Assembly: GCA_010093605.1 (NCBI GenBank)
Contig: MU004186.1
Span: forward strand, 1,964,616-2,028,615
Direction of reading: 5' to 3'
DNA length: 64,000 nucleotides
Source of the DNA: Lophium mytilinum
Taxonomy: Eukaryota
Shown: piece by piece, positions 38,399-45,200 of the stretch
Layout: every line of letters starts with the position of its first letter
Numbering within the stretch: position 1 is the first letter of the stretch
The notes under the pieces: model-generated
Seen by the model: only the letters and a program-made list of their open reading frames with translations
Told to the model about the DNA's origin: nothing
Database searches by the model: none
Translations under genes and position numbers: made by a program

Positions 38399-40010
38399 CT
38401 ATGAATCTTGCATCTCTTGCTGTCCTTTCGTGCCCTCAATCTTCCCTGGCTCCTCGAACACAGCAGCCATTGCATCTTCGATTATCTTCATACCCTCCTC
38501 AATCTCAGCCTCAGAGATTACTAGCGGCGGCACGAAACGAAGCGTGTTTGTGCCACAAGTGATGACTAGTAATCCGCGCTCCCTAGCAGCCGTTACGACT
38601 GGTGTTGGGTCTTGGGTGAGCTGGAGGCCAAGGATGAGGCCCTTGCCTCTGACTTCAGTGATGATGCTCGGGAATCGTTTCTGAAGCGCCTTGAAGTGTT
38701 TGCGAAAGATCTGCTCTTTCTCCAATACTCCTTTCTGCAATTCTGGGTCTGAGAGTCTCGAGAGGATGTAGTGTGCGACTCGCGACCCGAGCGGGTTTCC
38801 ACCAAAAGTCGTTCCGTGATCACCTGTAACGATCTTAGTAGCCACAGCTTCATTGACGATAGTCGCGCCAATTGGGAAGCCGTTTCCGAGAGCTTTAGCA
38901 GTGGTAAGTATGTCCGGGTGGGCTTCCGCTGGCAGGGAGCCATGAGCCCATAACAATCCAGTACGGGAGAGACCGCATTGGATCTCGTCATAGATCAGAA
39001 CCGCGCCGACTTCGTCACATCGCTTCCTCAACGCGGTGAGGAATTCTGTTGTAGCTACGTTCACACCCCCCTCGCCCTGAATGGGCTCGATAATAACACC
39101 GCATGTTCTATCTGTGACAAGGTTGTTGATACCATCGATATCGTTGTATGTGCCGTATTTGAATCCTGGAACCATTGGCGCGAACGGCTTCTGATACTTT
39201 GGGTTCGGCGTCGCAGAGAGCGAGCCCATAGTGCGACCGTGGAAGGAGTTGTGGAAGGAGACCAGCTCGTACTTCTCGCCCGAAGGCTCCACAACCTTGC
39301 CGACCTTCCGCGCGAACTTGATAGCAGCCTCATTGGCTTCGGAACCTGAGTTGCAGATAAAAGCTTTGGAGGCAGTATGCATCGCGCCTGATTCGACAGT
39401 CTTCTCGACAAGGGATTTGGAGAGGGTGCCCGTCCATGGGTTATGGTAGAGGTTTGAGGTGTGAATGAGGGTTTGGGCCTTGACATCACAACTTCGTCAG
39501 CTTTTCGCCCTGTATCAGATAGTACAATTCTGGGGGAAAGATACCTGCTGCCCCAAGAGCTTTGCCATCTCTGGATCGCAATGGCCCAACGCATTCACGG
39601 CAATGCCGGCTGTGAAGTCTAGGTATTTCCTGTTCTCCACATCCCATAGATAGCATCCCTCTCCCTTCTCAAACATAGGCGGTGGGCGGACATAAGTTGG
39701 GACCATGAAAGGTAGCTGGTCATTCACTAGGCGGGCTGTTTGCGATGACTCGGCGGGGTCCGAGTTTGGCAGCGAGGCTTCTTTCTGCAGATACATCGTC
39801 AATACGTTGTTCTAGCTGGCAGGATGAAGCTGCTGAGGCAAAGTAAGGGGAACCGACTGCAATTGAGTCCTTCAATCCCCTAGGAAGGTTCGACTGCGCG
39901 ACCGCTGCTGATGCTGATGACGCATAACGGCTTGAGATAGGACAAACGACTGCAGCACGGGGTGTCGTCAATGCGACGCACAGCCGACGAGAAGAGACCC
40001 GAAACGCCAT
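38399..40010 (-). CDS. ARG8: Acetylornithine aminotransferase, mitochondrial
   Basis: YLDFTAGIAVNALGH, NSGSEANEAAIKFARK, FHGRTMG, EPIQGEGG, DEIQCGLSRTG, AKALGNG and HGTTFGGNPL motifs; presequence-like N-terminus; 2 introns. Confidence 0.95.
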
Positions 40011-40753: not shown

Positions 40754-41149
40754 GCACGCGGGGCATGTAAAAGGTGGCACTCTATTTTCGCTTTTGTGCA
40801 CCTATCTGCCACTGCTTTGATGTATTCTTTAAAACAAAAATCTCTTAGCTTTAGGCTATGTAGAAACTTGTTAAGGCACTCCAAGTAGTAGTAGACTGGA
40901 GCACCTACTATACCTACTAGATAGAACAGCTTTACAAGAGCATAGTAGATAAGTGGCAGTAGATACTGGCTATCTGTAAATATATAAAGTATACCTAATA
41001 CTTCTATACCTCTTTAGCACCGTTAGAGGTCCTCTAGTATACTATTACCACTTATAAAATACTAGCTTTGGCAAGCCTAATAGCTCCCCAGGCCACCTCA
41101 GACGGTGTTGAATAGCTTCAGCGTGCTACTTTTTTCCTGCCTAGCGTGC
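40754..41149 (-). mobile_element. MITE-like element, family B, copy 1 (TpA-rich, RIP-like)
   Basis: Imperfect TIRs of about 30 bp (CACGCGGGGCATGTAAAAGGTGGCACTCTA ... CAGCGTGCTACTTTTTTCCTGCCTAGCGTG). Its reverse complement aligns along its length with 54772-55134. Confidence 0.75.
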
Positions 41150-42253
41150 CCAAATCGCCCTCACGGTTGCCCAAACGTGTTTTCGTGGGCGCTTGTCGTC
41201 GGTCAAGAGGCGAGAATGCTTAGATGTGTCACATTCACTGCTAATTATTGGCTCTGGGCCCTTGGAGTTCCCACCGCTATAGGGACAGTAACTTACAGCC
41301 TTTGCCGAAAGAATGTACATAAGCAGGCTTTTACACCGATCAAATCGGCTTAAACAAAGTTGGAAAAGTGTGTTGAGGCCGGTCAGACAGCGGCGGAACA
41401 GAACCGCTCTGCTAAGCCAGCCAACCAACTCGGCCATCTGACCATTTGGTGCTTGTTGATGGAGACTGGACGAAACATAGTCTACTAAATCAAATATTTG
41501 AAAATCCTGGAAGGCACCATCGCAAGTGCATATCTATGTGACTGCTTACTTGGCCTCAAGATGACTTCAAAGACTTGTGCATATTGATTTGTACTACCGC
41601 TGTCTGAGGTGGCCCAGCAAGTTTAAAGACTGTTCAAACCGATGGGCTCGTACCTGATTTGGGGGTTTGAAAAGGTGTTGAAGCACCACTGACAGCGGCA
41701 AGCGAGGGGATAGGCTGAGGGTGCAGACTTGGATTGCTGCAGAGTTCACGAAAATACACAATGCATGATTCAACGCCTTCGGCGTTGAATCCTACAGAGT
41801 TGTACTTAATCATGAATATGCTCGACTCAAGAAGAGGCTGTTGGGCGGGCTGAGGAGGGCCTTTTCTCAGCGACCGTTCCTTGCACTGAATTGTTACCTG
41901 CGTAATTAATGCCCTACTCGAAAACGAGACAGCTCATACGAAGAAGAATTGACGTTATTACTTGCAGTAAATTTTCGTGCGTGAGAAGTTGGTGATGAAA
42001 GAAAATATCGATCACTGACTCTGATTCGCTACAAACCCAACGCCCCTGGACCACCCCCACCCACCATCCTGACGCCCCACACCCTTTTAGTTGCTAGTAG
42101 ATTTGATTGGCCTTTTCTACAGTCCGTGCCGTGCCTTGTGTTCCGCGGAAAAACTCTTTCCCCGCCCCACAACTTGATTTCGCTCGCCCACGCCATTTGT
42201 AAGCCTACATATAATGAAAATTTTCATCCAGTCTCCATCAACAAGCACCAAAT

Positions 42254-42405
42254 GGTCAGATGGCCGAGTTGGTTATGGCGCCAGGCAAGTTACTTGTTCA
42301 CATAAGTACTTACGTTCAGTTACTAACTGAGTTTCCAGGTTAAGGTTACCTTAACATTACATCCTGGTCACGTAAGTGGCGTGGGTTCGAGTCCCACTCT
42401 GATCA
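42254..42405 (+). tRNA. tRNA-Leu(AAG) with a canonical 16-nt intron (42346-42361) and an additional 54-nt spliceosomal-like insertion (42285-42338)
   Basis: Acceptor stem GGTCAGA/TCTGATC plus discriminator A; A box TGGCCGAGTTGG; anticodon stem CCAG^G/CCTGG with loop TT-AAG-G...T; long variable arm CAC-GTAA-GTG; T arm GTGGG-TTCGAGT-CCCAC. Confidence 0.9.
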
Positions 42406-42414
42406 AGAGCTTCA

Positions 42415-42431
42415 TTTTTTGCCCTTTTTTG
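42415..42431 (+). terminator. RNA polymerase III terminator (oligo-T) of the tRNA gene
   Basis: TTTTTT-GCCC-TTTTTTT starting 10 nt after the discriminator base. Confidence 0.8.
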
Positions 42432-42773
42432 ATCCTCGATCATGTATTGGGTGTGTAGGGAGTGGTTGGTAGAATGTTGATGAGGTGTTGTGGCGGGTGA
42501 TGCAGCGGGAAAGGATACAGTGCATCGTAAAGAAGCTACAAACGAGTTTGGCATGCGCGGAATCGTTTCTTTTTATTCATTATACGTAGGAATGTCACGT
42601 TGAAATGTTATCTAGCATTCAAATCATTAAATTCGTCTAAGGATTTCGATGCGTTCCCATCATTGCCGCAGTGAGCCTACCCACTTCTCAGCCTCCAAAT
42701 TACAGCGTATCTCCAACAGTGTATGCTCGCACTACTCTAAAGGACCTGTATTCACCCTCTCAAGCCCTCGCAC

Positions 42774-45200
42774 CTACGTCTTCAACACGTCCGCCGCCAC
42801 CAATATCGCCTTGGCAGTCTTCCCAACCCACTTCTGCGCCAACTCTAAATCCCCCGCCTCCACCGCCTCTGTAACCGCCGGAAATGTAACAGGCGCGTAT
42901 CCTGTGTCAATACCAGGCGCAAAGATCAAATGCTGGTAAAACTCCCTCTCCGGCAAGCCACCTTGGCTCACAAACCCCCTACTGAAATCCTTCGCCTTAG
43001 TATTCGTGACCTTGATCAGATCCGAGTCGCTTGAAGAGACAGCGAAAGCACGGAGTTCTTCGAATTGGGACGAGTAGTTCTTGAACGTCGCGATGGCGTC
43101 GCTGAGCTCGGACAGGTTTACTGTGCTGTTCGCTTCCGCGACGGTCTCTTTCAAGTCTGAGAAATACTCTTCTAGCGCTGGCGTGTAGTCTGCCGGAGTT
43201 AAGGGCAGGACGTCGTCGTTGACGAGGTGGTAAAGTAGCAGAGCTAGAAACTGGCCGATCGACCTGTGAGTTACGAAACCAGGGTCACCCAGGGTACTCA
43301 TCCAGTGGTAGGAATCGAAGTTCGAGTGGTAGTGCCAGATGGGATCCTCTGGGCCACCATTTGCACCAAAGTCAATCGCGCTGATACCTTTGTGGAGGAA
43401 GGTAGCAAAGTCACTGCCGCTGCCTAGGACGCCGAACTCGCCGTCCAGGAAATCGTACCAGACGTCGTAAAAGGTGCGATTTGTTACCCCTTTGACTGGG
43501 TAGATGATCTTCTTCATGATAGTTGTGGCAATGGCGTGGAGGTCGGGGGTAGCGTCTATATATGGGTACGGGCCTGAGGTAGCGATGTCGACGTTGATGT
43601 TCGTGACGGCAGCTTCGGTGAGCCAGGGGACGTACTCTTCCACCCATTCTGTGCTTCCGACTGTGCCGTACTCTTCGCCGTCCCAGCTTGCGAGAATGAT
43701 GGTGCGAGCAGGCTTCCAGCCGGTTGCTAGCAGTTTACCGAAAGCTTTAGATAGCTCGATGATGACGGCTGATCCAGAGTTGGGGTCACCTGTGTCACAT
43801 TAGTCCTTATCTTTCCTTATTGATGCACATTGACCTACCAGCGCCGCCAACAATCCAAGCATCACGGTGGTTCCCCACGATGACAACTTCATCTTCGTTC
43901 GTGCCATTGATAATTCCAATAGCGTTCCAGATGTAAGTGTATTTTTCTTCCATCTCGTTCTCTAAGAAAAGAGTAGTGCCAGGAGCAGGTCCTGTGCTGT
44001 ACGTAACATTACCAATGCCTCCGAGCCAACCGGTACGATTCACCTCCTCGCCCGTAAATCCATGTCCATCTAAGGCTTGGAGCAGGGGCTGCGCATCGAG
44101 CCAAGAAATTGGAATTGATGGAATGCGAGGCGTTACCACGAATCTATCAGATCGAGGAGAACCGAACTTAGACGGATACCCGGGGGTCGTAGGGTCACCA
44201 GCATAGGTACTTAGAAACTCGACGGTACCTCGCTGTACACTCGTAGGATTTCTGGCAGGGCCATCTGGATACGCCTTGTATCCGTTTGCTTCGGTGATAT
44301 TGCCGTCGCTGCCGGGGTCGGTGAAGATGATAGCCCCAATCATGCCATGGTTTTGGGCGTTTTTGACCTTTAGTCCACGGAAGGGCCCTCCGTATTTTGT
44401 GAGTGCTATTTTGCCTTCCAGCTCAACGCCTAGCTCCTTTAGGCGAACAAAGTCGACTTCTTGTCCTCTCCCTTCGTAATGGTCAAAAGACTATACTATA
44501 CAAGGCAAATTGTAACGTTAACATACCGACGTAGACATATTCTGCGGTCGCGTTCCCTGAAAATGAGTACCCATTGAACACGGGAATGCGGTTGGGATAG
44601 CTGCGCCGAATGAGTTAGCGCTTTCTTCCGACGGGCTGGATATTGACTTGCTTCGCAATGTCCGACGAATATGCCATTTTAGTCTTTCATCGACTGATTT
44701 CAGATTTGAACATGGAAATATGCTATGACTCACCTCGTTGTGTCATCTACAGCAAGGACTTCCTCTTCTAGGGAGGCATCGTGTGAAGTGCCATTACTAT
44801 AGTCAAGCCGCAGGGATTGTGCAATCGGGTAGTCAAGGAAGACAACTTAAGCAATCAGCCATTCATATTTTCATAATTGATTAACGTAGTCATACTTACA
44901 GTATTCAGCTAGGCTAGAGGTAAATCCGAACTCGGCCCACCGGTCAGCCGTCCATTGAGCCTGAGTCTTATTGGTTCCAGCAAGATGCGCCCCGTGAGAG
45001 TAGTAGTATTCCCATGTTGCAATTGTCGCGTTGTCAAAGGAATCGACGAGCAATTTCTCGTTGGCGTCAAGCACTGGAGGGAAGGGAACTACATCTTGAC
45101 GTTTGACGAGTTTCTTATGATTGTGAGCCTTCCCGAAATCACGCTCTCGTAGACAAGCTTGCACACCAATTGCGCTAACGAGAATCAAGGGGAGCTTCAT
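42774..45200 (-). CDS. Glutamate carboxypeptidase II-like M28 peptidase with PA and TfR-dimerisation domains
   Basis: Signal peptide MKLPLILVSAIGVQA; HLAGT, GDPTTPGYPS, GNHRDAW, DPNSGS, SWDGEEYGTVGSTEWVE, GSGSDF and YHSNFDS motifs; multiple introns. Confidence 0.92.

Follow-up and report, generated by a model that had tools for sequence, protein, structure and literature searches.

A tRNA-Leu(AAG) gene of Lophium mytilinum that probably carries a spliceosomal GC-AG intron next to its canonical tRNA intron

Introns of the mRNA type in U6 small nuclear RNA (snRNA) genes of Schizosaccharomyces pombe and Rhodotorula were reportedly described by Tani and Ohshima in 1989 and 1991. Such introns occur in U6 and other snRNA genes of fungi, and U6 is a gene of RNA polymerase III (Pol III) (PMC5855946; PMC numbers refer throughout to the sections of these articles that were available to us). 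Ectopic spliceosomal introns occur likewise in ascomycete nuclear ribosomal DNA (rDNA), chiefly that of lichen-forming species (Bhattacharya et al., 2000, as cited in PMC8527467), and are removed from RNA polymerase I (Pol I) transcripts even by yeast (PMC8527467). Reviews, like textbooks, keep two machineries apart and assign spliceosomal introns to transcripts of RNA polymerase II (Pol II) and tRNA introns to the tRNA splicing endonuclease (TSEN) (PMC12530127, PMC10275265, PMC4090602). Two of them treat spliceosomal and tRNA introns as separate types (PMC10275265, PMC12530127), and the third, a review of tRNA introns, describes non-canonical eukaryotic tRNA introns as rare and endonuclease-dependent and does not use the word stem 'spliceosom' in its available sections (PMC4090602). 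Here we report on a tRNA-Leu(AAG) gene in a 64-kb stretch of contig MU004186.1 of Lophium mytilinum (the window, meaning the whole stretch of DNA that was analysed), in which a canonical TSEN-type intron is accompanied by a 54-nt insert with the signals of a spliceosomal GC-AG intron. No description of spliceosomal introns in tRNA genes was found in the full-text literature searched, to which most subscription journals do not belong, in agreement with an earlier note on this DNA that knew of none; a prior description elsewhere is possible.

Like the introns of U6, the insert has the appearance of a short spliceosomal intron in the gene of a small, highly structured, fungal non-coding RNA, U6 being made by Pol III with internal promoter elements. 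Unlike U6, the host here is a tRNA and not a component of the spliceosome, and it contains a second, TSEN-type intron, so that two splicing machineries would act on one RNA. Since the host is a tRNA, the usual explanation for U6, reverse splicing into an RNA that lies at the catalytic centre, is not directly applicable. The rDNA introns of ascomycetes share with the inserts described here an mRNA-like size and positions scattered across lineages; their hosts are not transcribed by Pol II, and the introns are removed from the mature RNA. They reside, however, in Pol I-made rRNA, whereas the present host is a tRNA gene of a non-lichenised Dothideomycete relative. Introner-like elements of Dothideomycetes were reportedly described by van der Burgt et al. 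in 2012 and by Collemare et al. in 2015. These elements, for which references are given in PMC11146597, belong to the same fungal class and are recently gained short spliceosomal introns that bring their own signals. They exist in many near-identical copies, whereas no second copy of the 54-nt insert was found in the 64-kb window by blastn, and the five inserts compared below show no mutual similarity and are not copies of one element. A last resemblance concerns the non-canonical tRNA introns of archaea, Cyanidioschyzon merolae and nucleomorphs, which lie at positions such as 30/31, 53/54 and 59/60, with several introns per gene (PMC4090602). Those introns form a bulge-helix-bulge, are cut by the tRNA endonuclease and have neither GT-AG ends nor a branch point (PMC4090602), whereas the present inserts carry spliceosomal signals and match the local mRNA introns in size. 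We class the insert as a probable ectopic spliceosomal intron, with the peculiarity that its host is a tRNA gene which also contains a TSEN intron.

The tRNA gene gave the sole match to an Rfam family anywhere in the window, a single hit of the tRNA family RF00005 on the plus strand at 42254-42405 (41.3 bits, gathering score 29) whose alignment spans model positions 1-71 of 71. After deletion in silico of the 54-nt insert (42285-42338) and of the 16-nt intron (42346-42361), ARAGORN returned an 82-nt tRNA-Leu(aag); with default settings it found 0 tRNA genes in the window. The sequence shows the cloverleaf of a class II tRNA-Leu, in which the acceptor, D, anticodon and T arms are accompanied by a long variable arm and the discriminator A73, and the mature sequence is 1 nt off those of two fungal genes without an extra insert (L015 and L054). 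The class II body and the canonical intron at 37/38, both proposed in the earlier note, were confirmed by Rfam and ARAGORN; the A box, B box and oligo-T runs are present as claimed, and the coordinates given there all agree with the sequence (Table 1). Within the 16-nt intron, CCTTAAC (42349-42355) is complementary to GTTAAGG (42339-42345). It is this intron that shows the position and pairing of a canonical TSEN-type intron, while the 54-nt insert lies separately at 30/31. The same note had held that the cloverleaf is complete only without the 54 nt. This is correct for the 7-nt anticodon loop but not for the stems: Rfam draws a full cloverleaf around a 76-nt 'loop' with the insert left in, and the stems can form before splicing because the upstream CCAGG can itself pair with CCTGG. 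With introns allowed, ARAGORN proposed a tRNA-Val(tac) with a single 70-nt intron; this assignment was rejected, as the body is of the class II Leu type and the sequencing run described next removes 54 nt and not 70.

The insert is absent from the sequences assembled from a public sequencing run, X1, whose kind is given as 'RNA? (a guess)'. The run has 70% of the sampled words of 41700-43300 and yields four contigs on the stretch. In its record 2 (262 nt, depth 116.5), 42245-42280 is joined to 42335-42560 and 54 nt are skipped, with 5 letters that fit either side; the register of the skip is compatible with the GC..AG boundaries. This contig shows no other difference from the window and retains the 16-nt intron, and none of the four contigs contains the insert. 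A half-spliced product in which ...GGCGCCAG is joined to GTTAAGG... with the 16-nt intron kept had been predicted from the DNA, and exactly such a contig is found in X1. An assembler that works with 31-mers cannot be led across 54 nt by a 5-nt repeat, so molecules with the joint were sequenced. Apart from the skip, the contigs equal the window across about 1,200 matched bases. Their depths are 9.84 and 5.1 (40970-41979), 116.5 (tRNA locus) and 138.3 (a 6.6-kb contig from 42638); as depth varies more than 10-fold between adjacent single-copy stretches, unlike in isolate DNA, X1 behaves as RNA. The coverage holes at 41980-42221 and 42561-42637 are intergenic DNA; such holes alone prove nothing, and no transcript ends were read from them. 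The joint is very probably an RNA-level event in the same strain. Records 1 and 3 seemed chimeric but are collinear with the genome at an inverted partial copy of the gene (41979 down to 41423, and 41452 downwards), to judge from the loose end of record 3, blastn and a sequence comparison. The contig with the spliced tRNA extends 155 nt past the gene (42406-42560); from its end, 77 nt are missing up to 42638, where the contig with the convergent peptidase gene starts.

When cut in this register, the insert reads CAG/GCAAGT...TACTAAC...TTTCCAG/G (slashes mark the boundaries). The 5' splice site CAG/GCAAGT (42282-42290) fits G[TC]RAGT preceded by AG, the 3' end TTTCCAG is at 42332-42338, and the branch A is placed 12 nt from this 3' end (CAG). 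Introns of the GC-AG type make up about 1% of fungal introns, have a strong donor consensus and typically deviate from the U1/U6 consensus at +2 only. The donor CAG/GCAAGU fits this consensus at all positions save +2, and UACUAAC is a perfect partner for U2. The size and architecture were compared with 15 likely mRNA introns of the window, which were picked by a reading-frame heuristic and are not annotated introns. Their length is 49-79 nt and their start GTRNGN, and in most of them the branch A lies 9-14 nt from the end, so that the insert, with 54 nt and a distance of 12 nt, resembles them as the earlier note had stated. The note further remarked on the lack of any run of 4 or more T in the insert; this is correct but of no diagnostic value, since only one of the 15 introns has such a run. 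No GC-AG example was found among the mRNA introns of the window; a candidate in the neighbouring gene (44601-44651, minus strand) failed the reading-frame test, and the real intron probably begins further upstream at a GT.

A chance test was performed in which a segment had to start with G[TC]RNG[TG], end with AG and contain CTNAY with a branch A 8-16 nt before the end. All signals are carried by 18 of the 1,023,160 window segments of 49-56 nt (1.8e-5 per segment). Since CCAGG flanks the insert as a direct repeat, the 54-nt deletion has six equivalent registers in DNA, only one of which is GC..AG; with six registers allowed, 17 of 200,000 random segments carry the signals. The splice signals of the insert are far beyond chance. 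As to its origin, a gapped but collinear alignment links positions 42289-42330 of the insert with the last part of the canonical intron and the 3' exon (42357-42402), and 75 of 2000 shuffles reached its score. This hints weakly at an internal partial duplication, too weakly to claim one.

Similar inserts were found in tRNA-Leu(AAG) genes of other fungi. Metagenome contigs were scanned with a 20-nt stretch of the tRNA 5' half (D loop to nt 31), which gave at least 118 loci; as the query needs this stretch unbroken, inserts inside it are undetectable. The AAG anticodon loop follows in 110 of the at least 118 loci, and all 110 have the canonical intron at 37/38. Complete genes among the matches listed number 104 (93 unique loci). 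Six of these 104 have a second insert, 49-56 nt long and located in the 3' half; they represent four events. By our own Sprinzl numbering, the insert is located at 59/60 in the T loop of L011 and L113 (5' site GTACGG, branch CTCTAAC, 3' end ACAG), at 52/53 in the T stem of L070 and L102 (GTACGT, GGCTAAT, TTAG), at 58/59 in the T loop of L100 (GTGAGT, ATCTAAC, AAAG) and at the end of the variable arm of L104 (GTGCGT, AGCTTAC, TTAG). A CTNAY branch A lies 10-12 nt from the AG end in every one of them. The search of relatives for tRNAs split by splice-type inserts, which the earlier note had advised, thus yielded four further events at other tRNA positions in other fungi. With the inserts at 59/60 (L011 and L113) and 58/59 (L100), the conserved C61 of the B box is displaced by about 50 nt, and these genes may depend on a different promoter.

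Removal of the second insert restored a tRNA-Leu(aag) with canonical intron in 6 of 6 genes (ARAGORN). With both inserts removed, L070, L102, L100 and L104 equal the commonest mature sequence among the matches listed (22 loci, 18 of them without a second insert). L070 and L102 have unrelated flanks and share only the tRNA unit and a trailer of about 35 nt up to the T run; about 10 differences fall into their introns and trailer and 0 into exons or splice signals (alignment read by eye). The likeness starts about 2 nt before tRNA position 1 and stops at the T run, and thus coincides with the presumed Pol III transcript, both introns included. Either concerted evolution or dispersal through copying of the unspliced precursor RNA would fit such a shared unit. 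L011 and L113 represent one locus in two close genomes, whose second inserts differ by a few substitutions and a 2-nt indel that leave signals and exons untouched. The four metagenome inserts show no similarity to their own genes. Because five independent gains share one architecture in genes whose exons look selected, the inserts are presumably removed and the genes presumably work. Decayed tRNA-Leu copies that differ from the insert-bearing genes do exist in these fungi, since two loci look degenerate: in L033 an intact 5' half gives way to unrelated sequence, and in L041 the anticodon and T arms contain several substitutions.

Table 1. Features of the tRNA-Leu(AAG) locus in the window.
Feature	Position	Strand	Basis
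TATAAT, TATA-like element 39-44 nt upstream of tRNA position 1 (putative function)	42210-42215	+	sequence
Exon 1, tRNA nt 1-30: acceptor 5' strand, D arm, first 4 nt of anticodon stem	42254-42284	+	Rfam, ARAGORN
A box TGGCCGAGTTGG	42261-42272	+	sequence
CCAGG, 5-nt direct repeat flanking the insert	42281-42285 and 42335-42339	+	sequence
Spliceosomal-type GC-AG intron, 54 nt, between tRNA nt 30 and 31	42285-42338	+	signals, X1 skip
TACTAAC, branch-point consensus, presumed branch A 42326	42321-42327	+	sequence, distance to 3' end
Exon 2, tRNA nt 31-37: last anticodon-stem base, loop TTAAGG, anticodon AAG	42339-42345	+	Rfam, ARAGORN
Canonical tRNA intron, 16 nt, at 37/38, pairs with anticodon loop	42346-42361	+	sequence, ARAGORN
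Exon 3, tRNA nt 38-73: anticodon stem 3' strand, variable arm, T arm, acceptor 3' strand, discriminator A	42362-42405	+	Rfam, ARAGORN
B box GGTTCGAGTCC	42384-42394	+	sequence
Two T6 runs, Pol III terminator-like	42415-42420 and 42425-42430	+	sequence
Inverted partial copy of tRNA 5' flank and tRNA nt 1-21, 52/53 nt	41423-41475	-	blastn, sequence comparison

An intact and expressed Dothideomycete tRNA-Leu(AAG) gene that contains a TSEN-type intron of 16 nt at 37/38 and a U2-type GC-AG spliceosomal intron of 54 nt at 30/31 is in our view the likely explanation of these data. What the data show is the anatomy of the gene, the signals, the joined form with the 54 nt out and the 16 nt in, and the same architecture elsewhere in tRNAs of other fungi; the spliceosome as the cutter, the polymerase behind the spliced precursor and a working tRNA as the product are inferred. 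In the proposed course of events, the primary transcript would be bound by U1 and U6 at CAG/GCAAGU and by U2 at UACUAAC, and the 54 nt would be excised in the nucleus as a lariat. G30 would thereby be joined to G31, giving an ordinary intron-containing pre-tRNA, from which TSEN and tRNA ligase would then take out the 16-nt intron; end processing and editing of A34 to inosine (I34) would come last. Action of the spliceosome first and of TSEN second, the order already suggested in the earlier note, is the most likely one: it fits the X1 intermediate, in which the 54 nt are gone and the 16 nt kept, and it fits the situation in yeast, where TSEN acts after nuclear export.

Several points weigh against this explanation. 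The kind of X1 is only guessed, and its RNA nature was deduced from depth. It is the single run with the locus and is available as contigs, which cannot show unspliced or mature forms, levels, strand or ends. A Pol III transcript with proper termination would not be expected to pass both T6 runs, as the contig does up to 42560. On either side of the insert stands a copy of a 5-nt direct repeat, an arrangement also seen in insertion/deletion polymorphisms and in template-switch artefacts. The 30/31 insert of the window is in none of the 118 matches listed, so that an orthologous locus with the same intron is missing among them, and the insert-bearing metagenome loci are known from contig DNA alone. 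Transcription by Pol III is questionable for L011/L113 and L100, whose B box is interrupted by the insert. Finally, intact tRNA-Leu(AAG) copies elsewhere in the genome may make this gene dispensable.

Among the alternatives, splicing that is confined to Pol II-made or read-through transcripts is unlikely but survives best. The Pol III product would then stay unspliced and useless, the gene would be dead as a tRNA source, and the intron would be a tolerated passenger. The run of the X1 contig 155 nt beyond the tRNA through both T6 runs and the TATAAT upstream of the gene speak for it, as does the contig depth of 116.5, which resembles the 138.3 of the neighbouring mRNA as if this RNA had been captured along with mRNAs. 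Depth is one mean per contig, however, and the part beyond the T runs may be thin. The extension could represent sparse read-through from an abundant pre-tRNA; alternatively, the contig could stem from a Pol II transcript initiated behind the TATAAT element. The locus-specific base 42226 and anything upstream of it are in no X1 contig, and contigs cannot show the transcript start. Against a dead gene, the exons of the insert-bearing genes equal the commonest mature sequence while introns and trailer diverge, which argues for selection as tRNA genes. Moreover, Pol III-made U6 transcripts are spliced in fission yeast (cited in PMC5855946).

It is improbable that no splicing takes place at all and that the joined form stems from DNA, from a second copy or from another strain without a recent 54-bp insertion, which would make the window copy a disrupted pseudogene and the insert merely intron-like. 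The guessed kind of X1, the absence of the insert from every X1 contig and the partial duplication of the region (inverted copy at 41423-41475) are compatible with this, and insertions and deletions typically have a direct repeat, here CCAGG, at their two ends. Depths of 5-10 next to 116-138 on adjoining single-copy stretches nevertheless misfit isolate DNA, and X1 equals the window at every other matched base, the 155 nt of 3' flank included. Full splice signals arise by chance in about 2 of 100,000 cases, yet five independent inserts have them, and the exons are intact.

A non-canonical tRNA intron that is cut by TSEN or another endonuclease via a bulge-helix-bulge-like fold, with only incidental splice-like motifs, is very unlikely. 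A precedent is offered by archaea, with introns at 30/31, 53/54 and 59/60, and by some algae, with introns at various sites (PMC4090602). The insert folds into two hairpins, but the minimum-energy fold puts the splice boundaries in a multiloop. A strict bulge-helix-bulge, defined as two 3-nt bulges that hold the splice sites with a 4-bp helix between them, was found in 0 of 19 insert/register cases, by a weak scan of no discriminating power, in which canonical introns counted as strict in just 1 of 109 cases and as relaxed in 52 of 109. Furthermore, GT/GC-AG ends and a branch motif 10-12 nt from the end occur in 5 of 5 inserts, and endonuclease introns need neither. Fungal TSEN measures from the mature domain, and the T-arm inserts disrupt this domain, on which eukaryotic TSEN relies. 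Least credible, to the point of being highly implausible, is a library artefact by a template switch of reverse transcriptase between the CCAGG repeats across the structured insert: a 5-nt direct repeat around a hairpin-forming stretch is the classic setting for such artefacts, but the joined form is the only assembled one (depth 116.5) in contigs that keep the major variant, while artefacts are normally a small minority, and the splice signals and the four other events would be left without explanation.

If the gene does combine both introns, one tRNA gene would need both machineries, and tRNA supply would be coupled to the spliceosome. It would also provide a natural substrate for studying how the spliceosome is recruited to a short, tightly folded and probably Pol III-made RNA. 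Five independent gains in an 82-nt RNA would favour reverse splicing into abundant RNAs or an insertion mechanism at the DNA level, and introns that split the B box would question the requirements for TFIIIC binding. Annotation would be affected, since such genes are missed (0 genes with ARAGORN default settings) or given wrong anticodons ('Val(tac)'). On balance we lean, if only slightly, towards the broader idea that spliceosomal introns form a recurrent and so far unrecognised class of tRNA introns in filamentous ascomycetes and perhaps other eukaryotes. They would have been gained repeatedly at varied positions (30/31, variable arm, 52/53, 58/59, 59/60), even within the B box, in genes that remain functional and are processed by the spliceosome and then TSEN, and standard finders would miss these genes or call them pseudogenes. 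Such a class would stand beside the endonuclease-spliced, group I and group II tRNA introns.

A separate observation concerns the 3' ends of the metagenome genes. About 42 of 99 tRNA-Leu(AAG) genes among the matches listed have a trailer of 33-47 nt before the T run, and most others have 3-14 nt. The long form is found in L001, L003, L012, L017, L018, L027, L036, L047, L063, L070, L102, L106 and others, with 31 unique trailers. It consists of a shared start NCATTCGT, a hairpin whose stem varies between loci but stays paired, and then CCAGG or CGGGA. Judged by this pattern, the long trailer appears to be conserved, structured and co-transcribed; the window gene does not have it.

In the surroundings of the locus, an acetylornithine-aminotransferase-like exon (38399-39496) is 94% identical to a Mytilinidion resinicola protein, followed by other Dothideomycetes and lichen fungi. 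A convergent gene for an M28/transferrin-receptor-like peptidase occupies the minus strand, and the tRNA gene lies about 370 nt past its stop codon. A second run, X2, whose kind is likewise guessed, covers only 42944-43154 of this peptidase gene with 90-95% likeness and nothing at the tRNA. An open reading frame at 41985-42305 was rejected as mRNA, X1 being without cover at 41980-42221. The inverted copy at 41423-41475 comprises 32 nt of sequence upstream of the tRNA and tRNA nt 1-21, is unrelated beyond these and has an X1 depth of 5-10; a second tRNA gene in head-to-head orientation or a local rearrangement may have left it behind.

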